Source: an uncultured bacterium
Lineage (GTDB): Bacteria > Patescibacteriota > Minisyncoccia > UBA6257 > 2-01-FULL-56-20
Direction: 5' to 3'
Length of the DNA stretch: 64,000 bases
Assembly: GCA_963844965.1 (NCBI GenBank)
Contig: CAWJQC010000004.1
Coordinates: 96,001 to 160,000, forward strand
The notes under the pieces were generated by a model, which was not told where the DNA came from, did no database searches, and saw only the letters and a list, made by a program, of their open reading frames with translations. A program made the translations under genes and the position numbers. Shown here one piece after another: positions 1-30,959 of this stretch. The stretch's first letter is position 1; every line of letters begins with the position of its first letter.

Positions 1-14
1 AACACCTGAAAAAA

Positions 15-1913
15 ATGATCTCGGAACTGCCATACGAACTCACGTTTTCGCAAAAGAAATCATTGTGGGAAATCATCCAGGACCTCGCCAAAAAACAGCC
101 GATGAACCGCCTGCTCCAGGGCGACGTGGGCTCCGGCAAGACGGTTGTCGCGGCGCTCGCCGCGGTAATTACCGCGGAAAACGGGCTGCAGACCGCGTTT
201 ATGGCGCCAACCGAGGTTCTCGCGAGACAGCATTTTGAAACATTGAAAAAATTATTCGCCGGAATTCCCTCGATCCATCAACCCGTAGTTGGGCTTCTCA
301 CGTCAAGCGAAGCAAAAATCCTCTACGCGACAGACCTTGAATCAAAAATCAAAAAACCGGAGTTGCAGGAAAAAATAAAAAACGGCGAGGTAAAAATAGC
401 CATCGGCACGCACGCTTTGATACAAAAAGACGTGGCGTTCGGCAATCTTGCCTTTATCATCATTGACGAACAGCATAGATTCGGCGTCTCACAACGAGCT
501 GCGCTCGTTCGCGGACAGACGCAGAATGATAATACGCGGACAGACGCTGAACAACTACTATACGAAAAAACGACGTTTGAGATAAGAAAAAGTCTGTTTG
601 AGGTGAGAAAACAACTGGGCCTTGGTCATAAAGAAGTGGTGTATCAGAAAGCATTGGAGGAGGAGTTCAAGAAATCCGGTGTAATATTTGAGAAAGAAAA
701 GAAAATTCCTGTCGTTTATAACAAGAAAAAGATTGGCGTTTATCAACCGGATTTTGTCATAGATAATGAAGTAATTTTGGAACTTAAGGCTCTTCCCTTT
801 ATCGGCGGCATCGAAAAAAAACAGCTGTGGAATTATTTGAGGGGTTCGGATTACAAACTCGCGCTTATGGCAAACTTTGGACCGGAAAGATTATCCATAG
901 AGCGGGTAGTATACGATATTGCGCGGAGTCGGCGGCTGTCAGCGTCCGGTCAGCAACTGTCCGCGCCTATCCCCCACCTCCTCTCAATGTCCGCCACGCC
1001 AATCCCACGCACGCTCATGCTCACCGTCTTCGGCGATTTGGATATATCGCTCATCACCGAACTTCCCGCCGGCAGAAAAAATATCGTAACAAAAATAATC
1101 CCCCCACGGGGCAGGAGCGAAGCCTATGAATTCATCCGCGGCGAAGTGAGGGCCAGCCGGCAGGTTTTTGTCATCTGCCCCCGCATTGACAAACCGCAGA
1201 CAGGCGCAGACCACACGCAGACAAACGCAGACAAGACACAGACAGACGCAGACAATTTTCAGCGGCTGTCTGCGTCAAGTCAGCGACTGTCCGCGTTAAG
1301 TCCACGTAAGTCCGCGTTAGTGTGGGAAGTAAGATCCGTGAAAGAAGAATTTGAAAAATTATCCAAGAAAATTTTTCCGGATTTGCGCGTCGCCATGCTC
1401 CACGGCCAGCTCAAGCCAAAAGAAAAAGCGGGTATCATGAAGGACTTCCGCAACTACAAAATAGATATTCTCGTTTCAACTTCCGTCGTGGAAGTTGGCG
1501 TGGACGTGCCGAACGCAACAATAATGATGATTGAAGGCGCCGATCGCTTCGGGCTGGCTCAGATCTACCAATTCCGCGGACGCGTGGGGCGCGGCGAACA
1601 CCAATCCTATTGCTTCCTGTTCACGGATTCGTCCGCCAAAACTACGCGCGAGCGGCTGCAGGCCGTCCTTGAAGCCAAGAACGGCTTTGAGCTCGCCGAG
1701 AAGGACCTGAAGATCCGCGGTCCCGGCGAATTCCTCGGCACGGCGCAGACCGGCTTTCCCGACACGGCGATGAGCGGCCTCATGAACCCGGAGCTCGTGA
1801 AAGCAAGCCGCGAAGCGGCGGCAAAAATCGTCCAAAAAGATCCGCTTTTCAAAAATTATCCGCTCCTGAAAACCAAATTAAACGAGTTCCGGAAGGAAAT
1901 CCACTTGGAGTAG
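15..1913 (+). CDS. recG: RecG-like ATP-dependent DNA helicase, helicase core only (N-terminal wedge domain lies upstream of the window); carries three in-frame insertions
   Basis: Walker A GDVGSGKT, IIDEQHRFGV (DEQH), SATPIPRTL, QFRGRVGRG motifs. About 150 extra aa between motifs II and III. Confidence 0.85.
   Translation: MISELPYELTFSQKKSLWEIIQDLAKKQPMNRLLQGDVGSGKTVVAALAAVITAENGLQTAFMAPTEVLARQHFETLKKLFAGIPSIHQPVVGLLTSSEAKILYATDLESKIKKPELQEKIKNGEVKIAIGTHALIQKDVAFGNLAFIIIDEQHRFGVSQRAALVRGQTQNDNTRTDAEQLLYEKTTFEIRKSLFEVRKQLGLGHKEVVYQKALEEEFKKSGVIFEKEKKIPVVYNKKKIGVYQPDFVIDNEVILELKALPFIGGIEKKQLWNYLRGSDYKLALMANFGPERLSIERVVYDIARSRRLSASGQQLSAPIPHLLSMSATPIPRTLMLTVFGDLDISLITELPAGRKNIVTKIIPPRGRSEAYEFIRGEVRASRQVFVICPRIDKPQTGADHTQTNADKTQTDADNFQRLSASSQRLSALSPRKSALVWEVRSVKEEFEKLSKKIFPDLRVAMLHGQLKPKEKAGIMKDFRNYKIDILVSTSVVEVGVDVPNATIMMIEGADRFGLAQIYQFRGRVGRGEHQSYCFLFTDSSAKTTRERLQAVLEAKNGFELAEKDLKIRGPGEFLGTAQTGFPDTAMSGLMNPELVKASREAAAKIVQKDPLFKNYPLLKTKLNEFRKEIHLE
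505..555. repeat. GCGGACAGACGC-type palindromic oligo-repeat, in frame in recG (left flank of GxxExxY insert)
   Basis: gcggacagacgcag...cgcggacagacgctg; same motif family recurs at 926, 1196, 15287, 24724 and 24919. Confidence 0.6.
575..880 (+). other. GxxExxY / PD-(D/E)XK-like (PDDEXK_3) domain inserted in frame inside recG
   Basis: LGLGHKEVVYQKAL...ILELKAL...LANFG matches the GxxExxY family signature. Sits between helicase motifs II and III and is bracketed by oligo-repeats at 505-555 and 926-967. Confidence 0.6.
926..967. repeat. oligo-repeat (inverted orientation: ggctgtc...gtccgcg), right flank of GxxExxY insert in recG
   Basis: gagtcggcggctgtcagcgtccggtcagcaactgtccgcgcc. Confidence 0.55.
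1196..1320. repeat. compound GCAGAC/GTCTGC palindromic repeat block, in frame in recG (encodes TQTNADKTQTDADNFQRLSASSQRLSALSPRKSAL)
   Basis: gcagacaaacgcagacaagacacagacagacgcagac followed by inverted copies gctgtctgcgtc, gactgtccgcg, gtaagtccgcg. Confidence 0.6.
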
Positions 1914-2179: not shown

Positions 2180-3139
2180 CTACTGCTCCATATGACCGAC
2201 AAGGGTGCATGTATAAAAGTTACCAGTGCATTGGGATGAATTAGTAACATCCCAACAAGTTGAATAAGTCTCCAGCGCGCCACTACAAGGAGTGGTATTA
2301 GCGCATGAACTGTTGTAGTAACGAATATAAGTCATATACTGCGGGCAGAAGTAAATCGGCGTCCCGCCTGTAACTTTAAGAGTGCCGGGAATGATGACGT
2401 TGCCGTTTGCTAGAACCTGTATAGCTGCTCCGGTTGTAGTAGCTGTACCAGTATTCGGCATACTGCCGCCAATACCGACGTTGCCGGCATAGTTGATGAC
2501 TAATTTATTTGATTCTGCCGCACTAGGATAATTTCCCACCATAAGCATGGCGCCCTGATTAACATCGCCCACATCGAGCAGCACCGCATCCGCATTGGTC
2601 GTAGCCGCGGTGCCGTAGAACGTGCCGGTATTGGTATCCCTGTTCTGCTCGAACTGGGTGCCGTAATCACCGGTGTTATACAAGAACGAATAGGTGGGAT
2701 TACTAAAATCGCTGTACATCTCAAGGCCGGGGCCGGTACCGGCAGTATTTGAATATGCATAAAATTGATAGTTGGCGGGCGCCGCCGCTCCCACCCCGAT
2801 TCCGGAGGTGAATAAACCTCCTCCAGTTACCGTCAGTTTCTGGGTCGGCGCCGTATTCCCGATGCCGACGTTGCCGGAGGAATTCCAAATACCGGTGCCA
2901 GGCATCGTAACGTTGCCAGTAAAGGTCGGGCTCGCTAAAAGCGCCGCTCCGGTAACCTGCGCTACCCCGTAGTCACCAGATGCCGCCACCACGGCTCCGG
3001 TTCCGCCAAATACCGAGGTGACGCCGCCGCTCGGCCAAGCCGTGATGCAATTCGCCCCGGAGATGCAATATTGAGTGGCGTTTGCGGTAACCGTTGACGT
3101 ACAGAGCGTACCCTCCGCCTGAGTTTGTGAAATACCCAC
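2180..3139 (-). CDS. C-terminal part of tail-fibre-like surface protein 1 (Cys-rich C-terminus; joined to 2973-4625 by an apparent frameshift near 3125-3140)
   Basis: GNVGIGNTAP motif continues; ORF overlaps the upstream ORF in another frame. Confidence 0.5.
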   Translation of the reverse strand: MGISQTQAEGTLCTSTVTANATQYCISGANCITAWPSGGVTSVFGGTGAVVAASGDYGVAQVTGAALLASPTFTGNVTMPGTGIWNSSGNVGIGNTAPTQKLTVTGGGLFTSGIGVGAAAPANYQFYAYSNTAGTGPGLEMYSDFSNPTYSFLYNTGDYGTQFEQNRDTNTGTFYGTAATTNADAVLLDVGDVNQGAMLMVGNYPSAAESNKLVINYAGNVGIGGSMPNTGTATTTGAAIQVLANGNVIIPGTLKVTGGTPIYFCPQYMTYIRYYNSSCANTTPCSGALETYSTCWDVTNSSQCTGNFYTCTLVGHMEQ

Positions 3140-4625
3140 CGTAGCCGCCGGAGTTGGTGGCTAATCCATAAACTCCTACGCCGTTACCTGCCGCTGACTG
3201 TCCGGCAACCCCTACCCAGTAAGAAGCGCCGACCTGTCCGCCGAGAATCCCATTCGTTGTGGCGTTGCTATTATTTCCCGTTACCGAGCCGACCCATGAT
3301 GAATTGACGGCGCTCGTGAAACTGCCTACGCCAGCAACAACCAACGGATATGCCGGCGTCGTCGTCCCGATGCCGACGTTGCCGTTCGTGATGGAGAAAT
3401 ATGGACCACCCCCCATCCCAGTGCCAAGCGCCAAATTGAGGCCATAAGATTGTGACGTCAAATCAGCGTATGTAAATGCTCCGTTGCTGGTGGTGAACTT
3501 TATCCAATCTACGTTTGACCCGTTTGTATTGTCTAGCCGTAAGGTAGACGTACTTCCACTCTGAATATCAAGTTTTGCGACCGGCGCCGTGTTCCCGATG
3601 CCGACGTTGCCGTTGTTATTTATAAACAAGGCGGGTGACGCGCCGGATGAGTCAGAACCCTGAGTCAAAAAGGCCATTGGAGAACCGTTACTGCCGATCC
3701 GGGCCCAGTTCGCAACTGCTGCCGGTCCAAGCTGTAGCAAGGCATCGGTACCGTTAGATGTCAAGTCAAACTTGGCGAATTTTGACCCGTTCACGACATG
3801 CAACGTCGTTGCCGGCGACGCCGTCCCGATGCCGACGTTGCCGCCATATGCAAGCGTCATTATTTGGGAGTACCAACTGCTGGGGTTCTGATACCCAATC
3901 GTCAAGACCGAATTATCTGACGCTGGTGCAAAAACATACCCATTATTACTGCCAGCCATATCGCGGAGCTTGAAGGCTCCAAAGACATCAAGTGTATTTT
4001 GTGGTGACGGCGTCCCGATGCCGACCGAGCCCGAGAAATACCCGCCGCCGTAGACGGAGAGGGCCTGCGGCAAGTTGCTGGCGGAGGATGTGGTAACGCC
4101 CAGAGCGGAAGAAACAAACACACTGTGGGGGAACCCGTAGGGAACGCCGGAATCGGCCTCTAGAGAATTGAACACCGCGGGCGTGACATAGCCGGCGTTG
4201 ACGGTCCCGTTAAAATTGCCGTGGATCGTGCCGTTCACGTCAAGCTGGTAGCCAGGCGACGCCGTCCCGATGCCGACAGAACCGTCATTGCGCACGACAA
4301 GTATGGGCGACGAATTCGGATAAAGGATCTTCAATGTGTAATTCGCGGCATCAGCGGACGAAGAAGCAACGATGAGGAGTTTGGTTTCCGGCAGAGGCGT
4401 GGGCGTACCAACGCCCAGATTCCCAGCCGCATTAGTGCTTACCGCTCCCGAACCGAAACCGGGGGTGGGAGGAGGAGAGGCAAACGCGTAGTAGGTAGTA
4501 GGTAGTAGGTAGTAGGTAGTAGCGAGAATGACGAAAAACAAAACGTGCGGCGCAAAACTCGGACGCACACCGTAAAACTTGCGGCGGAGCTTTTGCTGTT
4601 TTTGGAACAAATCTGCGTCCATCAT
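2973..4625 (-). CDS. tail-fibre-like surface protein 1 (N-terminal part; paralog of 8555-11680)
   Basis: N-terminus about 95% identical to gene 8555-11680. KQQKLRRKF plus hydrophobic anchor, TTYYLLPTTYY, repeated NGNVGIGT(A/T)SP motifs. Block 3346-3850 is near-identical to 9464-9960. Confidence 0.6.
   Translation of the reverse strand: MMDADLFQKQQKLRRKFYGVRPSFAPHVLFFVILATTYYLLPTTYYAFASPPPTPGFGSGAVSTNAAGNLGVGTPTPLPETKLLIVASSSADAANYTLKILYPNSSPILVVRNDGSVGIGTASPGYQLDVNGTIHGNFNGTVNAGYVTPAVFNSLEADSGVPYGFPHSVFVSSALGVTTSSASNLPQALSVYGGGYFSGSVGIGTPSPQNTLDVFGAFKLRDMAGSNNGYVFAPASDNSVLTIGYQNPSSWYSQIMTLAYGGNVGIGTASPATTLHVVNGSKFAKFDLTSNGTDALLQLGPAAVANWARIGSNGSPMAFLTQGSDSSGASPALFINNNGNVGIGNTAPVAKLDIQSGSTSTLRLDNTNGSNVDWIKFTTSNGAFTYADLTSQSYGLNLALGTGMGGGPYFSITNGNVGIGTTTPAYPLVVAGVGSFTSAVNSSWVGSVTGNNSNATTNGILGGQVGASYWVGVAGQSAAGNGVGVYGLATNSGGYGGYFTNSGGGYALYVNGYRKRHSILHLRGELHHGLAERRRHLGIWRNRSRGGGIW
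4488..4521. repeat. (GGTAGTA)n heptamer array inside the signal-peptide region of surface protein 1
   Basis: gtaggtagtaggtagtaggtagtaggtagtag encodes TTYYLLPTTYY. Confidence 0.8.
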
Positions 4626-4633
4626 AATAATTT

Positions 4634-4658
4634 ACTACCTACTACCTACTACCTACCG
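4634..4658. repeat. (TACTACC)n heptamer array in the 5' leader of surface protein 1
   Basis: tactacctactacctactacctacc immediately 5' of ATG at 4625. Confidence 0.8.
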
Positions 4659-5567: not shown

Positions 5568-5791
5568 AACGACCTCCTCAAAAAGATTTAATTTAATTGC
5601 GCAAAGCAATTTGGCTACTCCCAAGAATAACCAAATCGCTTTGCGCAAGCAATATATTCATTTTTCAAGATACTTGCCTATCTATGCTAATTATAGCACA
5701 AATAAACAACCTGTCAACCCCCACCTTTTTCCGAAAAGGTGGGGGTCAAGTGGCCGCGGCGGCTGACCCGCTGAAGCGACGATACCCTACA

Positions 5792-6046
5792 ACTCATAAA
5801 TCTCATCTCGCTTGCCTATTTTGAGTATATAAATTGCGCCATTTCTAACGTCAAATACCAACCTATAATCGCCCACGCGAAATCTGAACTCCCCGCCGCG
5901 GTTGTCAGCCAAACGCTTGGCAAACCTCAACGGATTATCCTCTGACGCATAAATGCGCATCTTCTTTGCTTTGCGATGCGCACTTGAACTTCTCTCGGCA
6001 GGGATTCCAACTGCTTAGCCGCCCGCTTGGCATAGAAAATCTTCGT
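5792..6046 (-). pseudogene. RelE/ParE-family toxin, decayed copy (start ATG->ACG plus 5-nt insertion)
   Basis: Aligned to intact copy 7812-8066: cttcgttaca vs cttcattaca, and ttctttgctttgcgatg vs ttcttcgcgatg. Confidence 0.6.
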
Positions 6047-6222
6047 TACAATCCCAACTTCTTAAACAGCTTATCCTGCGATATAGTTTTTTTTGCCTTG
6101 ATTTCTTTTCTCGCTTCGCGGACATCCAAAATATGCGCGAGGTAGCCAAGCAGGGCGCCGAAGCGAGCATCCGTTTTCCTCAAACGCTCGTATTCTTGTT
6201 TTGGTATAGTAACCGTGGTCAT
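6046..6222 (-). CDS. type II antitoxin (58 aa, MTTVTIPKQEYERLRKTDARF...), copy A
   Basis: Identical to 8066-8242; lies immediately upstream of the RelE-like toxin with a 1-nt TAATG overlap. Confidence 0.55.
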   Translation of the reverse strand: MTTVTIPKQEYERLRKTDARFGALLGYLAHILDVREARKEIKAKKTISQDKLFKKLGL

Positions 6223-6345
6223 ATAAGTGCATTATAGTAAACCGGCGGCGGATATCAACCCCCACACCAAACGAGGACTTTCCGGGTCCCGCGCCGAAGG
6301 CGCATGTCCTCGTTAGGATTCTCGATAGGAATTGCCGGTGCGACA

Positions 6346-7515: not shown

Positions 7516-7811
7516 GACTGCCATACATTTAAGATAATCCCAAAGCATGTAGCTGTCAACTCCTCTCAACTCCCGAGAAAACCCAGATGGCGAGCTTCTC
7601 CCTGCCTCGATAGGGTAGAAAAACAACTCAAACAGCCCAACGAAATTCGTTGGGCTGGATTTTTTTAACCAATGGCGTCACCCGCCGTTGAATTCCTTAA
7701 TATCTTTTGGCGAACACCGTTTAAACTACCTGTCAACCCCCACCTTTTTTCCGAAAAGGCGGGGGTCAAGCGGCCGCGGCGGCTGACCCGCTGAGCTGAA
7801 GCGACGATACC

Positions 7812-8066
7812 CTACAACTCATAAATCTCATCTCGCTTGCCTATTTTGAGTATATAAATTGCGCCATTTCTAACGTCAAATACCAACCTATAATCGCCCA
7901 CGCGAAATCTGAACTCCCCGCCGCGGTTATCAGCCAAACGCTTGGCAAACCTCAACGGATTATCCTCTGACGCATAAAAGCGCATCTTCTTCGCGATGCG
8001 CATTTGAACTTCTCTCGGCAGGGATTCCAACCGCTTAGCCGCCCGCTTGGCATAGAAAATCTTCAT
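7812..8066 (-). CDS. RelE/ParE-family toxin (intact copy)
   Basis: 84 aa, ...RFRVGDYRLVFDVRNGAIYILKIGKRDEIY, typical RelE/ParE C-terminus. Confidence 0.7.
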   Translation of the reverse strand: MKIFYAKRAAKRLESLPREVQMRIAKKMRFYASEDNPLRFAKRLADNRGGEFRFRVGDYRLVFDVRNGAIYILKIGKRDEIYEL

Positions 8067-8242
8067 TACAATCCCAACTTCTTAAACAGCTTATCCTGCG
8101 ATATAGTTTTTTTTGCCTTGATTTCTTTTCTCGCTTCGCGGACATCCAAAATATGCGCGAGGTAGCCAAGCAGGGCGCCGAAGCGAGCATCCGTTTTCCT
8201 CAAACGCTCGTATTCTTGTTTTGGTATAGTAACCGTGGTCAT
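8066..8242 (-). CDS. type II antitoxin, copy B
   Basis: 58-aa ORF below the 60-aa track cutoff; stop overlaps toxin ATG (TAATG). Confidence 0.55.
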   Translation of the reverse strand: MTTVTIPKQEYERLRKTDARFGALLGYLAHILDVREARKEIKAKKTISQDKLFKKLGL

Positions 8243-8274
8243 ATTAAGTGCATTATAGCAAACCGGCGGCGGAT

Positions 8275-8345
8275 GTCAACCCCCACACCAAACGAGGACG
8301 CGCGCCTTCGGCGCAGGACCCGGAAAGTCCTCGTTTGGTGTGGGG
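8275..8345. repeat. 20-bp-stem palindromic hairpin element (cccccacaccaaacgaggac / gtcctcgtttggtgtggggg)
   Basis: Perfect inverted repeat; related copies at ~6250-6310 and 33165-33235; second hairpin family cccccacctttttccgaaaaggtggggg at 5714 and 7733. Confidence 0.75.
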
Positions 8346-8554
8346 GTAAATTATGCCGAAAAAGCCGGAAGGAAAGATGCGATCTATGTTTCTCCCGCAA
8401 GAATACCCCCGCCGCAGGCGGGGGATGAATTGCGGTTCGAGAAACATAAACCCCGCCGATGGCGGGGTGAACTACCACCTAACATGCTGCATGTGCTAAG
8501 TATTTCGTGCGCAGCACGGCAGTTGAGATACCACCGCTGTGAGGCGGTGGTAGT

Positions 8555-11500
8555 TCATTTCAGAAGAGCGTCAACTTTTTCTTGGAGCGCGGCGTTCTGC
8601 GCCTGAAGAGCGCTGATCTCTTGTTGCTGCTCCTTGATGGATTCTATCATCGGCGCGATAAGCCCAGTATAATCCAGACCAAGGGTTCCGCTCGCGTCAG
8701 TTTCCACCAACTGCGGGAAAACCGTCTGTACATTCTGCGCGGTTAAACCGAGCTGCTCTCCACTGCCCATCAGTTTTGTATCTTTCCATTCAAAGGAAAC
8801 CGGCGTCAGTAACTCAAGCTCCGCAAGCGAACCCGACAGTGGAACTATATTCTTCTTCAAACGCTCGTCGGAGCTATTTATCCACTGCCCAGCATTGTTT
8901 GTATACTCGCCGTGGGCTCCCTGAAAGTCATACGTACTGCCGGAACCATAGACGCCGATTGCAGCAGTTGAAAACACCCCATACCCTGCGGGATTACCGA
9001 AGTATCCAGCGGAACCGTTCGCGCCCGCGGTATCCGAATATCCTTCCACCCCAACCCCAGTACCAGCGTTGTAGCCATAGACGGCGGGAAGACCATTACC
9101 AGTACCGTAGCCATAGACCCCATACCCAGTCGCACCAGCAGTGCCATAGACACCATACATAGAGCCGGTGCCATAAATCCCTGCCCCAGCTTGCCCGGCG
9201 CCACCGACGCTTAATGTTGACGCCGGTGCCGTCGTCCCGATGCCGACGTTGCCGTTCGTGATGGAGAAATATGGACCACCCCCCATCCCAGTGCCAAGCG
9301 CCAAATTGAGGCCATAAGATTGTGACGTCAAATCAGCGTATGTAAATGCTCCGTTGCTGGTGGTGAACTTTATCCAATCTACGTTTGACCCGTTTGTTTT
9401 GTCTAGCCGTAAGGTAGACGTACTTCCACTCTGAATATCAAGTTTTGCGACCGGCGCCGTGTTCCCGATGCCGACGTTGCCGTTCGTGATGGAGAAATAT
9501 GGACCACCCCCCATCCCAGTGCCAAGCGCCAAATTGAGGCCATAAGATTGTGACGTCAAATCAGCGTATGTAAATGCTCCGTTGCTGGTGGTGAACTTTA
9601 TCCAATCTACGTTTGACCCGTTTGTATTGTCTAGCCGTAAGGTAGACGTACTTCCACTCTGAATATCAAGTTTTGCGACCGGCGCCGTGTTCCCGATGCC
9701 GACGTTGCCGTTGTTATTTATAAACAAGGCGGGTGACGCGCCGGATGAGTCAGAACCCTGAGTCAAAAAGGCCATTGGAGAACCGTTACTGCCGATCCGG
9801 GCCCAGTTCGCAACTGCTGCCGGTCCAAGCTGTAGCAAGGCATCGGTACCGTTAGATGTCAAGTCAAACTTGGCGAATTTTGACCCGTTCACGACATGCA
9901 ACGTCGTTGCCGGCGACGCCGTCCCGATGCCGACGTTGCCGGAACCTAAAATTGTCACGAGATCCGTTTTCGAAGAAGCGCCCGTTTTTTCACTAAACTG
10001 GAAAGCGGTGGTGGGATTGTTATAAACATTATAAAAATCAACTTCTGCATTTCCTCCCGTATAATTCCAACCGACGGCCAGACCACCAAGGCCATCACTC
10101 ACCGGTAAAGATTGCGTGTTATATGAAGTTTTCAGGAACCCACCCTCAACATCGAGCTTGTAACCTGGTGCCGCCGTCCCGATGCCGACCGAGCCCGTGA
10201 AATATCCGCCGCCGTAGACGGAAAGCGCCTGCGGACCTACGGCACTGCCCGAAGTGGCAACCGCCAACGAAGAGGAAACGACGACGCTGGCCGGGAAAAG
10301 ATAATTGCCCGTGCTGACAACGTTTGAACCGAAATACCCGGCCGCCACGTTGCTGGCGTTCACGGTGCCACCCGAAGAAGCGCAGTCGGAACCGGTGCCA
10401 GAAACAACGCCCGCAGCGCTTACGTGCAAACACTGGATAGAACCGCTGATTCCAGAAACAGTAAGGGTGTTGGCACTTGCGCCACTGCTGAAAGTTTGAA
10501 GCGCGGTCCAGGTGTTCGCATGTCCAAGATTCAATGCGGCGGACACGGCGCCCGCGGTTGGAGATATCGTTAGAGTTCCGACGCCGCTGTCGCTGACCGA
10601 GGTTACGCTGCCGCCTGCCGCAGACCAAGAAAGCGTGCCAGCGCCGTTGTTCGTGAGCACAGTACTTGCACCGCCTTGCGCGGCCGGCCAGGAATAAGTG
10701 ATACTGTTGATTTTCGCGATGTTGCCGTTATTGTCAACCTGGAATTGACTGCTCGCGCCGACGCTAAAAAGCGACGCTGGCCCCGTCGTCCCGATGCCGA
10801 CGTTGCCGCCCGCAGTTATCCTCATTCTCTCAGCAGCTCCAGCTGAAGTGTCAACCCTAAATATAAGACCATTCGTCGCAGCGCTCGCCTTGACATCTAT
10901 AAACCCTCCCCCAGAAGAATCACTACTGAAAAGTCTCATGCCGTTAACACCGACGCTCGTATCACCTCCAAAGAATAGGTTGCCGTTGACGTTGCCTGCT
11001 GCCATAGGCAAAAGCATATTTGACGTAAGCTGAAGCTGTTGAGTTGGGTTCGCCGTCCCGATGCCGACGTTGCCGCTGAAATACCCGCCGCCGTAGACGG
11101 AGAGGGCCTGCGGCAGATTGCTCGCGGTTGTCGTTGTGATTCCAAGACCGGAAGTGATAAACACGCTGTGGGGAAACCCGTAGGGAACGCCGGAATCGAG
11201 TTGGAGAGAGTTAAACACCCCGGGCGAGATGTTGCCGGCGCTTACGAGACCGCTCACGCTGCCATAAATGGACATGCCGCTGGCGAGATTCACACTGCCG
11301 GCATTAGTAAGATTTGAAGTGCCGATACCGACGGTGCCATCGTTGCGCACGACGAGAAGCGGAACAGCAGAGCCGGGCTGGACAACCTGCAGAGCGAAAT
11401 TTGAGCTGTCGGTTGACGAAGCCACAATCAGAAGCCTCACGTTGGCGGAGGGTGTTGACGTTCCAATGCCCAGATTGCCCGCGGCGTTAACGCTTATCGC

Positions 11501-11680
11501 TCCCGAACCGTAACCGGGAGTGGGAGGAGGAGAAGCAAACGCATAGTAGGTAGTAGGTAGTAGGTAGTAGGTAGTAGCGAGAATGACGAAAAACAAAACG
11601 CGCGGCGCAAAACTCGGACACGCACCGTAAAACTTGCGGCGGAGCTTTTGCTGTTTTTGGAACAAACCTGCGTCCATCAT
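8555..11680 (-). CDS. tail-fibre-like surface protein 2 with peptidase S74-type C-terminal intramolecular chaperone domain
   Basis: C-terminus has SSDERLKKNI...LTAQNVQTVFPQLV...coiled coil; repeated NGNVGIGT motifs; N-terminal anchor plus TTYYLLPTTYY. Confidence 0.7.
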   Translation of the reverse strand: MMDAGLFQKQQKLRRKFYGACPSFAPRVLFFVILATTYYLLPTTYYAFASPPPTPGYGSGAISVNAAGNLGIGTSTPSANVRLLIVASSTDSSNFALQVVQPGSAVPLLVVRNDGTVGIGTSNLTNAGSVNLASGMSIYGSVSGLVSAGNISPGVFNSLQLDSGVPYGFPHSVFITSGLGITTTTASNLPQALSVYGGGYFSGNVGIGTANPTQQLQLTSNMLLPMAAGNVNGNLFFGGDTSVGVNGMRLFSSDSSGGGFIDVKASAATNGLIFRVDTSAGAAERMRITAGGNVGIGTTGPASLFSVGASSQFQVDNNGNIAKINSITYSWPAAQGGASTVLTNNGAGTLSWSAAGGSVTSVSDSGVGTLTISPTAGAVSAALNLGHANTWTALQTFSSGASANTLTVSGISGSIQCLHVSAAGVVSGTGSDCASSGGTVNASNVAAGYFGSNVVSTGNYLFPASVVVSSSLAVATSGSAVGPQALSVYGGGYFTGSVGIGTAAPGYKLDVEGGFLKTSYNTQSLPVSDGLGGLAVGWNYTGGNAEVDFYNVYNNPTTAFQFSEKTGASSKTDLVTILGSGNVGIGTASPATTLHVVNGSKFAKFDLTSNGTDALLQLGPAAVANWARIGSNGSPMAFLTQGSDSSGASPALFINNNGNVGIGNTAPVAKLDIQSGSTSTLRLDNTNGSNVDWIKFTTSNGAFTYADLTSQSYGLNLALGTGMGGGPYFSITNGNVGIGNTAPVAKLDIQSGSTSTLRLDKTNGSNVDWIKFTTSNGAFTYADLTSQSYGLNLALGTGMGGGPYFSITNGNVGIGTTAPASTLSVGGAGQAGAGIYGTGSMYGVYGTAGATGYGVYGYGTGNGLPAVYGYNAGTGVGVEGYSDTAGANGSAGYFGNPAGYGVFSTAAIGVYGSGSTYDFQGAHGEYTNNAGQWINSSDERLKKNIVPLSGSLAELELLTPVSFEWKDTKLMGSGEQLGLTAQNVQTVFPQLVETDASGTLGLDYTGLIAPMIESIKEQQQEISALQAQNAALQEKVDALLK
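9236..9691. repeat. 228-bp (76-aa) tandem duplication inside surface protein 2 (single copy in paralog at ~3361-3590)
   Basis: Two copies differ by 1 nt (N/K); unit NGNVGIGNTAPVAKLDIQSG...GGGPYFSIT. Confidence 0.85.
11544..11577. repeat. (GGTAGTA)n heptamer array in signal-peptide region of surface protein 2
   Basis: gtagtaggtagtaggtagtaggtagtaggtagtag. Confidence 0.8.
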
Positions 11681-11687
11681 AATAATT

Positions 11688-11747
11688 TACTATCTACTAC
11701 TTACTACCTACCACCTACTACCTACTACCTACTACTTACTGCTTCGC
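11688..11747. repeat. degenerate TACTACC-type heptamer array (7 units) filling the gap between the stop of 11736-12200 and the ATG of surface protein 2
   Basis: tactatctactacttactacctaccacctactacctactacctactacttac. Confidence 0.8.
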
Positions 11748-14331: not shown

Positions 14332-16005
14332 CTACACGGGAAAACTCCCGTTTTCCCGACCCCTTTCCCTGATTTTGGGCGTCACCCAAAATCCCAACCG
14401 CCATTTCCCTCCCAACATCAATCTGGTCTGCGCTTCAAGACCTGGCAACGCGCCAAAGATTATGAGCGTCAGCGGTATAAAAATCCACTGAAGAAAATAA
14501 ATGAGGTAGTGCCGCGCGCGGAACCAGCGCGGGCGCGGAGGCAAGAGCAGAATACCTAAAATCGCCGAACTTGCGATGCCTATCATGGAAAGCGAGACGA
14601 TGAAACGCGCGACTTGCGGCAGACTGTAAGAAAGGAGCGTGTAGTTGAAACGCCTGCCGCCGATGAACACCGGCAGCCACCCCAACGCGAAGATCATGAG
14701 GGAATTCGTCGCCCAAGAATGGAAACCTTCAAGGATATTGAAGGACCAATACCATTTTTTTCTTTTCGGAATTTCCGGGTCGCGCCGGAAGCCGTCCAGA
14801 AGATACGGAATATTTTCCGCGCCCCATCCCCAGCGCCGCTGTTGCCTGTAGATATTTTTCATCGTGGCCCAGAAAGTCGGCGCCGCGGGCGCGTCCATGG
14901 AAACCGGGTAAAGAAGGGGCTCAACGCGAAAATCGCCGTGATAGTGGAGATAGCACTGCCAAAAAATCCTTGAGTCCTCGGAGACAACGTCCTTATGCCA
15001 AAAACCGACGTCAATCAGCGTTTTCAGGGGAATTGACTGCGAAGAAAAAGAGGTCAGACGTTCCGGGCGCGACTGCTGCATCATCTGCCAGAAGGTTGAC
15101 GAAAAAGAAACGACGCGCGCCAAAGCCGGCGTCTCGTAAACGTTGTTCATGAAAAGCGGCACCGGCTGGTAAATCGCACGCTCGCGATCCTCCGAAGACA
15201 AAAAAACGTAGGCAAGCCGCCCGAAATATTCCGGGAAAACCTGCGTGTCAATGTCAAAAACCGACACTAAGATATTTTCATATCTTAACGCGGACTTACG
15301 CGGACTTAACGCGGAACTACGCGGAAAAACTTCTGCATTAGTCTGCACTTGCCCGCCTAAATTTCCTTCGGAAACTTTGGCGGGTAAATCTGCGTTAGTC
15401 TGCGCATTGACCAATGGGTCAATTATTAATTCTTTGGCGTGTGCCGCCGCCCACGCCTCATTGGAACCTTTGCCGGGAATTTCACCGGCTAAATTCCGCG
15501 GATGGACAGTGACAAGAAACCTGAAAAATTTATCGGCGAATTCTTTTTTTATTTTTTCGGCGACCGCTCTGGCGTCTTCCCCACCCGCTTCCTCCGTCGC
15601 CAGCACGACCAAAAGCTTATCCAGCGGATAATTCACGCGAACCAAGCTCTCAAAACTTCCGCGAACCACTTCATAGGGCTCTTTGTACATCGGAAGAATA
15701 ATAAGGTGATACACTTCCGACCATGACAATGACTTATGACGATGACCGCTCAAATTATTGTTATCGTTATTGTCATTTGTCATAGTCCGCAATTTTTCCA
15801 GCCAATCCACTCTCAGGTTTTTCCTCATCGCCGAAAAAGTTGAGCGCAAGTGCAGAGAGAGATAAATCGTTTTCAGGAGCCAGTAGATGTCAAAGAGTAT
15901 GATAAAAACCGCGACGGCGGCGGGCAGCTTCCACGACAGAAAGACCATCAAAAATAAAGTGAGCCAGGCAAGACCTCCGGGAAGAATTTCAAAAAAACGG
16001 TGCAT
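14332..16005 (-). CDS. family-2 processive beta-glycosyltransferase (cellulose/chitin synthase-like) with in-frame oligo-repeat insertion
   Basis: N-terminal TM helices; QQRRWGWG (QxxRW) motif; extra segment QTNADLPAKVSEGNLGGQVQTNAEVFPRSSALSPRKSAL. Confidence 0.65.
   Translation of the reverse strand: MHRFFEILPGGLAWLTLFLMVFLSWKLPAAVAVFIILFDIYWLLKTIYLSLHLRSTFSAMRKNLRVDWLEKLRTMTNDNNDNNNLSGHRHKSLSWSEVYHLIILPMYKEPYEVVRGSFESLVRVNYPLDKLLVVLATEEAGGEDARAVAEKIKKEFADKFFRFLVTVHPRNLAGEIPGKGSNEAWAAAHAKELIIDPLVNAQTNADLPAKVSEGNLGGQVQTNAEVFPRSSALSPRKSALRYENILVSVFDIDTQVFPEYFGRLAYVFLSSEDRERAIYQPVPLFMNNVYETPALARVVSFSSTFWQMMQQSRPERLTSFSSQSIPLKTLIDVGFWHKDVVSEDSRIFWQCYLHYHGDFRVEPLLYPVSMDAPAAPTFWATMKNIYRQQRRWGWGAENIPYLLDGFRRDPEIPKRKKWYWSFNILEGFHSWATNSLMIFALGWLPVFIGGRRFNYTLLSYSLPQVARFIVSLSMIGIASSAILGILLLPPRPRWFRARHYLIYFLQWIFIPLTLIIFGALPGLEAQTRLMLGGKWRLGFWVTPKIRERGRENGSFPV
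15287..15412. repeat. GCGGAC/GTCTGC oligo-repeat block in frame within the GT2 gene
   Basis: aacgcggacttacgcggacttaacgcggaactacgcgg...ctgcattagtctgcac...ctgcgttagtctgcgc. Confidence 0.6.
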
Positions 16006-18158: not shown

Positions 18159-18278
18159 CGTGATGTAAAAAACTAAAAGTATCCTAAGTCAAATATGTAA
18201 AAAGTCAAATAATTCGGCGGGGATATTTCTCGCGATTTTTTCAGAACAAAACGGAGCGGCCAAGCCGCTCCGACACAC

Positions 18279-19970
18279 CTAATTTCCCGCCTTTTCTCGC
18301 AACGCAAGTTCTTTCTTCATCAAGCTGACTGGAATTGAGCCGAAGGAAAGGATCAGATCGTGGAACTCTTTAAGAGTCATGCCCTTCGCCAGACATTCCT
18401 CGCGCCATTTCAGTATCTCGCGCCTGCCCAGGAGATAACACATCGGATAGCCGGGTATCTCAGTATACATGCAAATTTCCCGCTTGGCGCGTTGCGGACT
18501 CCAACCAAGTTCGTCTATATAAATCTTCTGAGCTTCCTCGGGACTAATCTTCTTTGTGTGCAAACCGATGTCTATAATTACCCGGTATGACCTCCAGAGC
18601 TGGTCAACAAGATTCTGCATCTTAAGATACGGGTCGGTTATCAAGCCGACTTCTTCGGCGAGCTGTTCCACGTAAAACCCCCACCCCTCAATAAAGATGG
18701 TGAACGCGTTCAGCCGGCGTACGATACTCGGGTGTTTATGTGCAAGTGTCATCTGCAAATGGTGACCAGGATACGTTTCGTGGCAAGCGACCGGCACTAG
18801 TCCGAAGTGATCCTTGTATTGTTCCTGCTTCCGACGTTCGTCCGAATATCTGTCACCGGCAGGGTCCGAAACAAGGAAAAACGCCCATTTTTCTCTCTCA
18901 AAAGGTCCGCAAGGCCAATAGGCAGCTGTCGGTATAAGCGTCCGCCAAAAGCACGGGGTTGGCACAACGTCAACGCCTTCTTCTATCTTCGGCACCACCG
19001 AACCACGGTTGAAAAATCTTTCAACCTGAGCCGCGGCTTCCTTGTACAGTCGCATAAGATTTGACTCGTCAAAGCCGTGCGATTCAATCCGCCGCAGATA
19101 CAGTTCTCGCCATGTCTTGGATGGATCTATGCTCTTCGCAAGCTCTCCCAGTTTCGCCTTAGTTTCTCCAACGGCCTGCCAAGCAATTTCTTCAAGCTCC
19201 TCAAGGGAATACGGCAGGAAATGCCATTCGCGGACGATCTCCTGAAGCACTTCCCTGCCGGCGGCAAAATCTCCATTGGCGAGCGGTTTTATTTTGGCGA
19301 GCCACACTTCGTACACGTCAAGCGCGCGGCGCGCCTTCCGAATCGCTTCCCTGAAACAGTTACGCAGCCTCGGATAAAGAGCCGAAAATTTTCCCTCAAA
19401 CTCGTCAAAGAAACGCCGCGCGTTCTGAACTTCGTCTTCGGCCATTTCAACCCAAATGAGCGGCGGGTTAGCGATGGTCCGGCGGGCGCTTCGCAACACG
19501 GCGGGGATATGTCTCACGCGCCAGAGTATGCACCGCGCAACCAATTTTTGCGTACGGCGGGTCATAGTCACGAGCGGCACGTAGGTTGCGAAAACTGACC
19601 ACTCCAGGGGTATCACTGGATCCTTATCGTGAAACTTCTTGTCAACCAGCCAGCGATACAAGTTCAAGCAATGTTTCTGTTCCGCGACGGCAATTTCATA
19701 ATCCACCGTGCCCGTCGGAGAGAAAGCGGCCGGGGGAAGATATTCCCCAACAAGCTCCAAAAACCTGAGGCGGGCTTTATATGCCTTTAACCAAAACTTG
19801 TTTGACCCAACGGATTGTTGGGAGAGCATGTGGTCGTAATCGTGTATGCCGTAGCACGTTGCCAATTCGGGCTCCAGCGGCAGATCATGTAAAAACCAGG
19901 AATAATAGTGCCGATAAAATTCATCCTCAAACCGAGACGCCGACTCCGGAATTCTGACCATCCACTTCAT
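18279..19970 (-). CDS. DUF885-family putative metallopeptidase
   Basis: CHETYPGHHLQ (HExxPGHH) motif characteristic of DUF885. Confidence 0.55.
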   Translation of the reverse strand: MKWMVRIPESASRFEDEFYRHYYSWFLHDLPLEPELATCYGIHDYDHMLSQQSVGSNKFWLKAYKARLRFLELVGEYLPPAAFSPTGTVDYEIAVAEQKHCLNLYRWLVDKKFHDKDPVIPLEWSVFATYVPLVTMTRRTQKLVARCILWRVRHIPAVLRSARRTIANPPLIWVEMAEDEVQNARRFFDEFEGKFSALYPRLRNCFREAIRKARRALDVYEVWLAKIKPLANGDFAAGREVLQEIVREWHFLPYSLEELEEIAWQAVGETKAKLGELAKSIDPSKTWRELYLRRIESHGFDESNLMRLYKEAAAQVERFFNRGSVVPKIEEGVDVVPTPCFWRTLIPTAAYWPCGPFEREKWAFFLVSDPAGDRYSDERRKQEQYKDHFGLVPVACHETYPGHHLQMTLAHKHPSIVRRLNAFTIFIEGWGFYVEQLAEEVGLITDPYLKMQNLVDQLWRSYRVIIDIGLHTKKISPEEAQKIYIDELGWSPQRAKREICMYTEIPGYPMCYLLGRREILKWREECLAKGMTLKEFHDLILSFGSIPVSLMKKELALREKAGN

Positions 19971-22306: not shown

Positions 22307-25104
22307 ATGCCCGAAGAATTTCCTACGCGCTACGACATAAAGGAAGTTGAAACGAAAATCTACGACCTATGGGAAAAGTCTGGGTTTTTCAATCCCGATG
22401 TTTGCGTTGAAAAAGGCGCGACGAAACCGGACGCCGAACCTTTTTCCATCGTCCTGCCGCCGCCGAACGTAACCGGCACCTTGCACATCGGCCACGCCTT
22501 TGAGGACGCGATCCAAGACACCGTTGTCCGCTACGAGCGCATGCGCGGCAAGCGGACGCTCTGGGTTCCCGGGACCGACCACGCCGCCATCGCCACGCAG
22601 GCGAAAGTGGAGGAACTTCTGCGCAAGGAAGGGAAAACGAAATACGACCTCGGCCGGGAGGAATTCCTGCGGCGCGTGAACGAGTTCGCCAAAAATTCTC
22701 ATGACATCATAATCCGCCAGATAAAACGGCTCGGCGCTTCGCTTGATTGGGGCCGCGAGGCATATACGCTTGATGAAAAACGAAATCTCGCCGTCCGCAC
22801 CGCCTTTAAAAAAATGTACGACCTCGGCCTCATTTACCGCGGCGATCGTATCGTGAACTGGGACCCGAAGCTACAGACCACCGTCTCCGACGACGAGGTG
22901 GAATGGATAGACGAAACGACGCCTTTCTACTATCTGAAATATGGGCCGTTCGTCATCGGCACGGCAAGACCGGAAACGAAGTTTGGCGACAAATACGTCG
23001 TCATGCATCCGGACGACGAACGCTATAAAAAATATAAACACGGCGAAAAGATAGAACTTGAATGGATAAACGGGTCGGTCACGGCAACAATTATCAAGGA
23101 TAAGGTCATTGACGTGAATTTCGGCACGGGCGTGATGACAATCACACCATGGCACGACATGACGGACTTTGACATCGCGGAAAGGCATCGCCTGGATAGG
23201 GAGCAGATAATCGACCTGCGCGGCAAACTGCTGCCCATCGCCGGCGAATTCGCCGGAACGCCTATCGCCAAGGCCCGGCCGCTCATTATTGAAAAACTAA
23301 GAACAAAGGGTCTCGTGGAAAAGATTGACGAACATTACGCCCATCGCGTCGCCACGAACAGCCGCGGCGGCGGCCTCATCGAACCGCAGATCCTCAAACA
23401 ATGGTTCGTCAAGGTAAACTCCAAGTTCCAAATCCCAATTTCCAACCTAAAAGGGATAAAAAGCGGCCAAGAGGTGACGCTCAAGGAACTTATGAAAAAA
23501 GTCGTGGAGTCGGGGCAAATAAAAATCATACCCGGACAGTTTGAAAAAATTTACTATCATTGGATAGACAACCTGCGCGACTGGTGCATCTCGCGCCAGC
23601 TTTGGTTCGGGCACAGAATTCCGGTGTGGTATTGCCTCGCCTGCGGCGAGCCGCAAGTTGAACCGAAAATAAAATCGCGATGGTTCCTGGTGCGGCACGG
23701 AGAAACAGACTGGATCAAAGAGGGGCGGCACATGGGACATAAAGAGGTTCCCATGAATGAAACCGGCAAGCAGCAAGCGATGGTAGCCGGCGAACGGCTC
23801 GCAAACGAAAAAATTGATCTGATAATTTCTTCCACCACCATGCGCTGCAAAGAAACCGCCGAAATTATCGCGAAAAAACTGGGTGTCAAAATTATTTTTG
23901 ACGAACGTCTGCGCGAGCGCGGCAGTGGCGAATGGGAAGGACTGCTGCATGCGGAAATCAGGGAAAAATACAAACCTCTGGAGCAAAAATATGGACCGAG
24001 GAGTGGAACAAGCGCGCGCGCTATGAATTCAAACCGCCGGGAGGAGAAAATTGGCTGGAACTTGAAAAGCGCGTAATTCAATCGTTCAAAGAGCACAAAC
24101 TTCGATACGCCGACAAAAATATCGCGATTGTCACCCACGCCGGTCCGATCAGGATCCTGGAAAAAAATCTTAAAAACAAATCATTTGAAGAAGTGGTGGG
24201 ATTAATACCCGAGAATGCCGAGATTGCTAAGCTTTCAATCGCAACTGCTTCCTGTAAAAAATGTGGCAGTGATACTTACGAGCAGGATCCCGATACTCTG
24301 GATACCTGGTTCTCCTCCGCTATGTGGACGTTCTCAACTCTCGGCTGGCCTGAAAAAACCTCCGACCTCAGAACCTACCATCCAACCTCTTTGATGGCGC
24401 CGGGGTATGAAATCCTTTTCTTCTGGGTGGCGCGGATGATACTCATGAGCGGCTGTCTTTTGGGAGAAATCCCCTTCCGCACGGTTTATCTCCACGGCAT
24501 TGTGCGCGACAAGCAGGGCAAGAAATTCAGCAAATCCAGCGGTCACGCGCTTGACCCCCTGGAACTAGCCGACAAATACGGAGCGGACGCCCTGCGCATG
24601 GCTTTAATTGCCGGAGCGGCGCCGGGAAACGACGTGCAATTTGACGAGAATAGGGTCAAGGGCTACAGGAATTTTTCAACCAAGATATGGAACGTAGCGC
24701 GGTTTGTTTTACTAAACAAACCGCCGCAGACAGACGCTGACAAGACGCGGACAGCCGCGGACATTGCTGGCCGACCAGAGATAAAGGAGTTTGAGGCAAT
24801 TAAATCGGAAATAACGAAACATCTTGATGAATACGAACTGCATCTCGCAAGCGAAAAGATTTACCACTACTTCTGGCACACTTTCGCCGACAAAATAATT
24901 GAACAGGAAAAAGCCAACCTGCGGACAGCCGCCGACAAGACGCAGACAGACGCAGACATTGCGAGACGGGCAGAATCCTATGCCCTACTGGGATACATTC
25001 TCGTCGGTTCGCTTAAACTACTCCACCCTTTCATGCCGTTCGTAACAGAAGAGATTTATCAAAAATTTGAACTAAATAAGCTTCTCTTGACCGAAAAATG
25101 GTAA
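22307..25104 (+). CDS. valS: valyl-tRNA synthetase with inserted histidine-phosphatase domain; apparent frameshift at ~23985-24000 splits it into two ORFs
   Basis: HIGH (TLHIGHAF) and KMSKS-like (KFSKSSGH) motifs, DTWFSSAMWTFSTLGWPE; ORFs 22307-24076 and 23932-25104 overlap out of frame at the A5 run caaaaatatgg. Confidence 0.8.
23672..24250 (+). other. phosphoglycerate-mutase-family histidine phosphatase domain inserted between the CLAC and CKKC zinc-knuckle cysteines of ValRS
   Basis: RWFLVRHGETD (RHG catalytic His), ...RERGSGEWEG..., FKPPGGENW, VTHAGPIR motifs. Confidence 0.6.
24724..24780. repeat. GCAGACAGACGC oligo-repeat in frame in valS (QTDADKTRTAADIAGRP)
   Basis: ccgcagacagacgctgacaagacgcggacagccgcggac. 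Confidence 0.6.
24919..24965. repeat. GCGGACAGCC/GCAGACAGACGCAGAC oligo-repeat in frame in valS (LRTAADKTQTDADIARR)
   Basis: ctgcggacagccgccgacaagacgcagacagacgcagacattgcg. Confidence 0.6.
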
Positions 25105-29686: not shown

Positions 29687-29759
29687 ATCAATATTATAGC
29701 GTCATCACGCCATATAGCGCAATAGTGCCCTGCCTGATACGATATTCATAAGAATACTC

Positions 29760-29963
29760 ATGGATATAGCGGCTAAATTCGGACAGAAGATAAAGAGGTT
29801 GCGATTGAGCGGAAAGATGTCTCAAGGTGGCCTCGCCAAGAAGCTCGGCGTTGGTGCTTCCTATGTCAGCAAGATAGAGCGTGGCATACAAAACGTATCT
29901 CTTAAGGGCGTGGAGAAATTAGCCGATGCGTTGGGCGTACCACCCGACCGCCTCTTGAAATAA
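29760..29963 (+). CDS. XRE-family helix-turn-helix transcriptional regulator
   Basis: KRLRLSGKMSQGGLAKKLGVGASYVSKIERG; divergent from recombinase. Confidence 0.75.
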   Translation: MDIAAKFGQKIKRLRLSGKMSQGGLAKKLGVGASYVSKIERGIQNVSLKGVEKLADALGVPPDRLLK

Positions 29964-30049
29964 CTGGCCTCGTCCGAAAGTTTCGGATAGATAAAATCCG
30001 CAAGGGAAAAATCGGGACAAAGATTCTTTCTTGTCGCAATTCACTTGCG

Positions 30050-30208
30050 ACGAACCGCCGCCTGCGGGACAGGGAAATTTTTTGGGATTGGAAAGACGAA
30101 TGGAAAGTAGTTACGGATTTGCTTCTCCATTTGCCCCTCGTGCATAAAGACAGCGAGCGAAGCGAGCGCGTTGATTTTGAAAAAGTTGATGCAAGTTCCG
30201 TTATGTCG
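30050..30208. repeat. IR-A right arm
   Basis: Reverse complement of 28163-28321. Confidence 0.85.
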
Positions 30209-30923: not shown

Positions 30924-30959
30924 CGGTTTCTTGCCTCCAGCCCCCCGATACGCTACGAC

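Follow-up and report, generated by a model that had tools for sequence, protein, structure and literature searches.

How do short palindromic repeats come to lie, in frame, inside otherwise conserved enzymes? The question is raised by a 64,000-nt stretch of DNA (contig CAWJQC010000004.1, positions 96,001 to 160,000; hereafter the window) from an uncultured, ultra-small bacterium of the Candidate Phyla Radiation (CPR; Patescibacteria), and this 64 kb is the part of the host's own genome that was scanned. A preliminary description of the window had proposed that one family of oligonucleotide repeats occurs at six sites in recG, valS and a gene for a GT2-type glycosyltransferase, that each copy keeps the reading frame, and that the repeats are palindromes reminiscent of Rickettsia palindromic elements (RPEs). 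Here we show that the family is real and abundant, with copies present or absent at orthologous sites, and that near-identical hairpin tips occur in unrelated genes of different genomes. On balance, we lean towards the view that the window repeats are copies of a hitherto undescribed, dispersed family of imperfect palindromes carried by a large CPR clade (Paceibacteria, including Liptonbacteria). In-frame palindromes within essential genes have been seen as mainly peculiar to Rickettsia; in the loci sampled here they are dense in a second, unrelated group of bacteria with reduced genomes. A literature search, in a searchable library that is incomplete, met no description of these elements.

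The repeat unit and its excess over chance

The repeats are built from a unit of ~10.5 nt (10-11 nt) with the core CGC(A/G)GA(C), or its inverse form (G)TC(C/T)GCG, and Tandem Repeats Finder gives periods of 10 and 21. Arrays of these units lie at six places in the window, in recG, the GT2 gene and valS (Table 1). The six sites of the preliminary description were all found in place and represent one repeat family. Every copy lies within an open reading frame (ORF) and encodes the low-complexity peptide attributed to it, in a variable loop of a conserved enzyme; the insertion sites align to short variable loops of the solved RecG and ValRS structures, and disorder is predicted for the arm peptides.

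With at most one mismatch allowed, the two-unit pattern GCRGACANRMSCVGACA matches the window 7 times, where 0.05 matches are expected and none of 100 shuffles has as many. The heptamer CGCRGAC is present 49 times (21.2 ± 4.4 expected), and clusters of at least two cores spaced 8-14 nt apart number 9 (0.55 expected), with 8 of the 9 falling within the reported sites. Outside the arrays, single cores are near expectation in the window (~28 versus 21); copies are clustered in tandem instead. A DNA uptake signal was rejected on this ground, there being no excess of dispersed single cores. Codon usage or random frequency, an alternative that the preliminary description had itself raised, has only the GC-rich background to recommend it. 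The shuffles and the excess in the census described below refute it, and the 5′ arms consistently use GCA, the less frequent Ala codon. We consider the probability of a chance or codon-usage artefact to be practically nil.

Table 1. Repeat elements, their host genes and related rRNA insertions (window coordinates, except where model positions are given)
Feature	Position	Strand	Remarks
recG, host gene	3..1913	+	5′ end cut by the window; full protein 893 aa (P0001); NCBIfam RecG equivalogs, E down to 2e-172
recG site 1, 5′ arm	508..552	+	Forward units CGCGGACAGACGCAGA ... CGCGGACAGACGCTGA, read as RGQTQNDNTRTDAE; pairs with 926-967
GxxExxY PD-(D/E)XK nuclease domain	555..914	+	Between helicase motifs II (DEQHRFG) and III (SATPIPR)
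recG site 1, 3′ arm	926..967	+	Inverse units GCTGTCAGCG / GGTCAGCA / CTGTCCGCG, read as RRLSASGQQLSA; repeat family D17
recG site 2, solo imperfect palindrome	1188..1322	+	Linker between the two helicase lobes; encodes QTGADHTQTNADKTQTDADNFQRLSASSQRLSALSPRKSAL
GT2-type glycosyltransferase, host gene	14332..16005	-	Orthologues carry PF13632
GT2 composite palindrome	15284..15412	-	Encodes NAQTNADLPAKVSEGNLGGQVQTNAEVFPRSSALSPRKSAL; 5′ arm interrupted by nested hairpin
Nested inner hairpin in 5′ arm of GT2 element	15352..15384	.	CCCGCC-AAA..TTTCC-loop-GGAAA..-GGCGGG; unique in the window
valS, host gene	22307..25104	+	Two overlapping ORFs; carries histidine-phosphatase insertion
valS array A	24724..24765	+	Four forward units, no inverse arm; read as PQTDADKTRTAAD
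valS array B	24919..24960	+	Forward units only; read as RTAADKTQTDAD
23S rRNA insertion 1 of locus L043	Rfam large-subunit (LSU) model ~284-288		154-nt insert
23S rRNA insertion 2 of locus L043	Rfam LSU model 1218/1219		Which we take to be the helix 45 loop, the classical site of intervening sequences (IVSs)
23S rRNA insertion 3 of locus L043	Rfam LSU model ~1887-1907		136 nt in place of 21

Solo palindromes and one-armed arrays

Two copies are solo palindromes. At recG site 2, a forward arm (1195-1254, 5-6 units) and an inverse arm (1263-1320, 4-5 units) enclose the loop AATTTTCA (~1255-1262); as RNA the element folds with -55.9 (z -5.5) in the sense and -77.6 (z -9.2) in the antisense orientation. 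For the GT2 element the corresponding z values are -5.7 and -8.8. Together, the solo palindromes beat their shuffles both as RNA (z -5.5 to -9.2) and as DNA (z -4.1 to -7.2). By comparison, the valS arrays have z near -1 or above, with no fold signal. The claim that the repeats are palindromic therefore stands for three of the six copies, which form or belong to palindromes, and is withdrawn for those of valS, which are one-armed arrays.

Alignment with orthologues shows that the segments are insertions and that orthologues with empty sites exist. For RecG we used the best 120 homologues, among which the window protein is nearest to those labelled Liptonbacteria or Paceibacterota. Relative to Thermotoga maritima RecG (1GM5), site 2 adds ~40 residues to the linker before the second helicase lobe. 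In RecG orthologues, this site is sometimes empty (35-36 residues), often filled by a CGCAGA-type hairpin peptide, and sometimes filled by hairpin-like peptides of quite different repeat flavours; it is a hotspot. The GT2 insert corresponds to a clean 40-aa gap in two syntenic orthologues (55% and 67% identity). A second low-complexity insertion in the GT2 gene (15740-15790; TNDNNDNNN, from a TTATTG hexamer array) is likewise missing from both.

Neither valS array is present in any of 119 ValRS orthologues. Array A adds ~6 residues relative to close orthologues and none relative to Thermus ValRS, while for array B the gain is 12 aa over Thermus ValRS and 8 aa over close orthologues. Hence, copies in the GT2 gene and valS are absent from relatives. 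The nuclease-bearing site 1 of recG, treated below, belongs instead to Paceibacteria RecG across the clade and not to this genome alone.

valS shows a further peculiarity: a histidine-phosphatase domain (PF00300) lies inside its zinc-knuckle region, and its two ORFs (22307-24076 and 23932-25104) overlap. Because ORFs in several relatives (P0132, P0163, P0166, P0167 and P0202) likewise start inside the phosphatase domain, the split may be real, or else a programmed frameshift, rather than an assembly error.

Composite structures shared between genomes

A 23S rRNA gene in a related locus (L043, that of RecG homologue P0010) carries three hairpin-array insertions at helix tips (Table 1). Over ~130 nt, insertion 1 and the GT2 element of the window share 77% identity, and the nested CCCGCC...GGCGGG hairpin occupies the identical position in both; insertions 2 and 3 have the core in common with the window repeats. 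Similarly, the hairpin tip of recG site 2, CGCAGACAATTTTCAGCG with its 18-nt loop, recurs exactly in the gene of an RluA-like pseudouridine synthase in another genome (L015), and an intergenic copy adjoining rplC has the identical loop. The central ~80 nt can be aligned among the site 2, RluA-like and GT2 copies. These shared composite structures are our main argument for one dispersed element family over independent local slippage.

Under the latter scenario nothing moves. Arrays would arise in situ from chance seeds by replication slippage, palindromes would form by quasi-palindrome template switching, and the likeness between sites would reflect a mutational or repair bias common to these reduced genomes. 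Several features fit this scenario. Unit number varies freely among orthologues (RecG homologue P0055 has ~8 units per arm), the valS arrays consist of forward units only, and other unit flavours exist in the window, as in-frame heptamer arrays in TsaD and as intergenic heptamer hairpins. However, it is hard to reconcile with a ~130-nt composite, complete with nested hairpin, shared at 77% identity by a GT2 ORF and a 23S helix of different genomes, or with identical 18-nt loops in unrelated genes. Nor does it account readily for a CGCRGA core and a hairpin polarity that stay constant across genomes whose proteins are only ~50% identical. We judge an in-situ origin to be unlikely.

In L043, a group I intron (4229-4490; Rfam RF00028, 86.9 bits) lies beside a tRNA, downstream of the insertion-bearing 23S gene. 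Rfam has no family that matches the hairpins themselves. Many short non-intron insertions have been recorded at classical IVS sites of CPR 23S rRNA by Tsurumaki et al. (PMC11270868); a term search of their paper met neither 'hairpin' nor 'inverted repeat', and its sole use of 'protein-coding' concerns coding regions inside rRNA insertions.

Abundance in related genomes and the reading frame

To quantify the arrays, we counted groups of at least three cores spaced 8-14 nt apart in 375,011 bp from 19 related sources (18 loci plus the window), with 208,078 bp of other RecG loci as a control. This core-cluster census took the place of an 8-mer flavour-sharing test, which was too noisy. The related Paceibacteria DNA contains 40 arrays compared to 0.05 expected, or about one per 9 kb; the control contains none. 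The 22 kb of a Patescibacteria locus in which RecG lacks both inserts are likewise free of arrays. When metagenomes were scanned with the insert alignment, generic RecG motifs were picked out, giving 20 loci without the insert that are usable as negative controls. An exhaustive phmmer search with the 46-aa peptide returned only 7 unrelated repeat proteins and hence no census of hosts, and a protein search with the 41-aa hairpin peptide had no word in common with any sequence.

Most of the arrays (35/40) lie within long ORFs. Their hosts are RecG (three sites), TsaD, the RluA-like pseudouridine synthase, LeuRS, ValRS, PheRS-alpha, the CCA-adding enzyme, GT2 and two ORFs of unknown function, to which one further locus adds EF-G. 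In one locus, RecG lacks the nuclease and has the site 2 hairpin, and arrays occur elsewhere in that locus, so the repeats need no RecG-borne nuclease nearby.

Hairpin polarity is constant, 5′-(CGCAGA)n-loop-(TCTGCG)n-3′, often with the loop AATTTTC, and none is reversed. In ORFs, forward cores fall in codon phases 0/1/2 in 5/41/40 cases and inverse cores in 26/3/28; the frames avoided are those that would give Arg-Arg runs or Cys. Of the unit spacings in ORFs, 63 are of 10 nt and 34 of 11 nt, the pattern required for arrays of three to four units to alternate between two frames. Outside ORFs, the spacing is 10 nt in 9 cases, 12 nt in 4 and 11 nt once. The resulting peptides (TQTNAD.. / ..LRESAS) are hydrophilic, predicted to be disordered, and placed in variable loops. 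This combination of a 10+11-nt rule with the use of two of three frames makes the elements a tractable test of how selfish DNA is filtered by reading frame.

One could argue from such a pattern that selection acts on the protein alone, for flexible hydrophilic linkers or disordered regions, the repetitiveness of the DNA being a by-product. The use of two of three frames agrees with this, as does the location of predicted disordered arms on either side of an inserted domain, where linkers are needed. But elements of like core occur in 23S rRNA (including the insertion that matches the GT2 copy at 77%) and in intergenic DNA, the arms are mutual reverse complements, which peptide function does not need, and the host enzymes are unrelated. 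Selection at the protein level fails as a sole explanation, and we regard it as very improbable.

The nuclease cassette of RecG

The observation that two of the recG copies bracket a whole inserted domain was borne out. RecG aa 185-304, enclosed by the mutually inverse arms of site 1, match the GxxExxY family (TIGR04256, E = 7.8e-30; PF13366), and the assignment agrees in family model, GxxExxY motif and PD-(D/E)XK catalytic residues. An AlphaFold model gives the nuclease core a predicted local distance difference test (pLDDT) score of 89-97 and both arm peptides <50, i.e. predicted disorder. Among solved structures, no sequence match to GxxExxY was found other than a weak hint of T7 endonuclease I (E = 0.12). 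Compared with T. maritima RecG (PDB 1GM5), ~149 extra residues lie between the two helicase motifs. The insert occupies the identical place in 97 of the 120 homologues, and many of these RecG proteins are named 'GxxExxY protein' by NCBI. In the remaining 23, just 34-67 residues separate the motifs; one of these, P0070, retains only the 3′ arm, QRESASDPRQSAL.

The arms themselves vary widely. Left and right arm peptides of orthologues include TQINAD/NLRESA, NAEQT/SAFVPQSSAS, TQINSD/QSKSEF and the AT-rich VVNTSEF/KIVNSNN. In the 17 loci with DNA, each 5′ arm was set against every 3′ arm: own pairs average -28.8 kcal/mol in duplex energy and foreign pairs -19.4 kcal/mol, and 0 of 20,000 permutations are as good (p = 5e-5). 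Since own pairs form the strongest duplexes, complementarity has been kept while the sequence changed; selection, intra-element conversion and re-insertion are all possible causes.

Comparing insert and host trees, 40% of quartets agree overall and 85% of strong quartets do, versus 59% and 99% in a size-matched host control. The cassette seems to have descended vertically for the most part, with perhaps an occasional replacement. Correlation of insert and host distances was uninformative as a test of co-phylogeny.

Strand asymmetry of folding

In none of the 12 solo hairpins analyzed (9 in ORFs, 3 in rRNA) does the sense strand of the host transcript fold better than its antisense counterpart, whose advantage ranges from 0.2 to 38.5 kcal/mol. 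Among the site 1 arm pairs, the antisense strand is the better folder in 15 of 17, and G.U pairs there number 65 antisense versus 21 sense (Wilcoxon p = 0.002). In the transcript, the tendency is for GCAGA in the 5′ arm to stand opposite TCCGC in the 3′ arm. Codon bias is ruled out as the cause of this A.C asymmetry because GCA is the rarer Ala codon in the window (134 versus 411 GCG), and a translation-specific weakening of the mRNA stem is ruled out because rRNA copies are biased alike. One reading is that stable structure is selected against, either in the transcript or on the non-template strand of the DNA; the other is a polar element that acts through the opposite strand.

Such properties could also mean that the stems are functional nucleic-acid signals, selected as RNase III sites, as protein-binding arrays on one face of the helix, or as antisense-strand structures. 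Co-variation of the arms across deep orthologues, a unit equal to one helical turn, fixed hairpin polarity and the antisense bias, with codon bias ruled out, are all in keeping with a signal. Yet copies come and go among close orthologues with no compensating feature, one-armed arrays are unfolded, and positions within genes track protein loops rather than transcript landmarks. The hairpins match no Rfam family, and the near-expected number of single cores outside arrays is unlike an uptake or recognition signal. A functional signal thus strikes us as quite improbable as an explanation of the family.

Repeat-flanked cassettes elsewhere

We surveyed free-standing GxxExxY genes on plasmids of other phyla for flanking repeats. 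Inverted arrays lie on both sides of the gene in Bacteroides finegoldii (units CACAGAGGA, z -8.5) and in Bernardetia (ACAGAGA, z -4.5). The Treponema gene is flanked by a plain inverted repeat, the Gemmatirosa gene is followed by a hairpin of CGCGGAT units, and the flanks in a Fusobacteria bacterium and in Prevotella are direct repeats. In two related loci, L048 and L049, 23S_rRNA_IVP (PF05635) genes have inverted heptamer-type arrays on their flanks; these are free-standing genes (L048 22197-22538 and L049 17478-17876) surrounded by arrays of AATTTTC or GGAAT type. Because arrays flank free-standing GxxExxY and PF05635 genes in this way, recG site 1 is an in-frame case of a general cassette comprising array, ORF and inverse array. 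L048 also holds a second PF13366-containing gene (18172-19590, 472 aa).

A bolder reading would unite hairpin arrays, GxxExxY genes and 23S_rRNA_IVP genes in one class of mobile 'IVS cassettes'. Inverted arrays with helical-period units would be the ends, the GxxExxY protein, as a structure-specific PD-(D/E)XK nuclease, would cut or home at extruded hairpins, and the cassettes would colonise transcribed DNA that tolerates stem-loops, namely rRNA helix tips, operon spacers and protein loops. If true, this would explain the spread of 23S intervening sequences and the role of two large families of unknown function, and the antisense folding bias would show which strand the element uses for its action. 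We rate this reading as rather unlikely.

Possible origin and spread of the elements

Returning to a dispersed family, we suppose from the distribution of copies that spread takes place at the level of DNA, with the elements as selfish or neutral passengers, and that genic copies survive only where translation through the element is harmless. Slippage and deletion would then lengthen or shorten the arrays and remove an arm, as the 3′ arm scar of P0070 and the one-armed valS copies suggest. Intra-element template switching, gene conversion or re-insertion could keep the arms complementary. The GxxExxY nuclease would be the obvious candidate for the moving enzyme; it is not required locally, because arrays exist in a genome with a nuclease-free RecG.

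Several points weigh against a dispersed family. Hallmarks of transposition, such as a transposase or a target-site duplication, were not found. The window copies share units rather than long identical sequence, so that recent copy-and-paste in this genome is conjectural. An inverse arm is missing from the valS arrays, and the spot occupied by array B reads ..GTDAEK.. in orthologues, as fits in-situ expansion from a native seed. Complementarity of the site 1 arms across orthologues that differ at ~45% of residues could just as well be due to selection on a structure. The link to rRNA depends on a single 23S gene, that of L043, and the balance of genic and intergenic copies applies to the sampled DNA, which for the host genome is the 64 kb surveyed.

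These elements tie together short rRNA intervening sequences, the GxxExxY and 23S_rRNA_IVP families of unknown function, and lineage-specific insertions in CPR proteins. They lengthen and distort alignments of CPR proteins as well as their domain annotations, and they provide ready markers for population genetics at the strain level.

Relation to known elements

In behaviour the elements are analogues of RPEs, but they are probably not RPEs. As with RPEs, palindromes lie in frame in many unrelated housekeeping genes of a reduced-genome bacterium and add extra peptide, here in regions that are probably tolerant. The recG site 2 (135 nt) and GT2 (129 nt) elements are of RPE-like size and both in frame; the valS copies fall outside the comparison as non-palindromes. 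RPEs are also found in RNA genes, and a related copy lies in a stable RNA gene of a relative. The likeness noted in the preliminary description thus holds for behaviour and not for unit architecture. One review (PMC10969869) describes ten families of RPEs, ~150 bp in length, with a conserved peptide encoded by each. Unlike RPEs so described, the present elements consist of ~10.5-nt tandem units in variable number, are sometimes one-armed, and also form the ends of a nuclease cassette. Their host belongs to an unrelated phylum.

By sequence and architecture, the elements belong with the short intervening sequences of rRNA and with repeat-flanked small-gene cassettes of CPR and other bacteria. 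Like 23S IVSs, the L043 copies are inverted-repeat stem-loops at helix tips, a type that occurs with or without a small ORF. In contrast, the window copies lie in protein-coding genes and are translated, and so are not at 23S helix tips. IVSs are defined by RNase III excision from rRNA, with no religation of the transcript, and we know of no report of IVSs inside ORFs.

[quoted passage not shown] The present elements resemble these in being small and non-autonomous, in having terminal inverted repeats, and in that they may lie in ORFs and add peptide. Unlike MITEs, the arms of the window elements are internally tandem-repetitive. Neither the GT2 nor the recG junctions show a target-site duplication, and the window contains no second GxxExxY gene, parent insertion sequence or element-linked transposase; the sole ORF carried by a copy is GxxExxY.

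Repetitive extragenic palindromes (REPs) and the hairpins composed of them (REPINs) are moved by the REP-associated tyrosine transposase (RAYT), a Y1 enzyme of the IS200/IS605 kind (PMC3116915). Here, too, a short palindrome family accompanies a protein gene flanked by inverted copies. Unlike that system, 35 of the 40 arrays are genic, and the flanked protein has a PD-(D/E)XK fold and is a predicted nuclease.

Two further comparisons concern tandem repeats. The heptamer arrays of cyanobacteria known as short tandemly repeated repetitive (STRR) sequences, and small dispersed repeats, are tandem or hairpin-associated, nest in each other, and occur in structured RNAs and genes. Our elements share the tandem oligonucleotide arrays and the hairpins, and differ in units and hosts; to our knowledge, no association with a GxxExxY cassette or systematic in-frame use has been described for STRR sequences. 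Genic repeats of Borgs have units that are multiples of 3 nt and are not palindromic, unlike the present units of 10 and 11 nt, which are frame-neutral only in pairs. In both cases intragenic repeats create new disordered peptide, as the Borg study reports for in-frame tandem repeats (bioRxiv 10.1101/2022.05.18.492195).

Other repeats in the window

In-frame arrays in the window reach beyond the CGCAGA family. TsaD (20318-21361) has in-frame heptamer arrays at 20518-20553 and 20625-20657, with GAAAATT x5 read as KKIENSKLKIEN and ACCTGCC/ACCCACC read as PATCHPPPT. Between genes of the ribosomal-protein region, intergenic hairpins of inverted heptamers (GTAGAAA / TTCTATT) lie at 37060-37126, 37487-37557 and 39874-39937, their mismatches being G.U-compatible on the plus strand.

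Inverted heptamer arrays of another type (GGTAGTA / CTACTAC; 4488-4656 and 11544-11740) surround the start codon and first ~35 codons of two genes for paralogous large surface-type proteins (2973-4625 and 8555-11680), whose 5′ regions are 92% identical. These arrays could sequester the ribosome-binding site. A ~600-bp direct repeat (5718-6317 / 7738-8347, 91-98% identity) contains a G+C-rich hairpin (CCCCCACCTTTTTCCGAAAAGGTGGGGG).

Longer inverted repeats are also present. A 159-bp perfect inverted repeat (28163-28321 / 30050-30208) is reported around a large serine recombinase (28085-29686), and a 386-bp perfect inverted repeat (30204-30589 / 32557-32942) encloses an ArsP-type permease (30960-31919). 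The region from 28085 to 32942, which also has a fluoride riboswitch (30655-30716), may be invertible or mobile, or may be an artefact of assembly.

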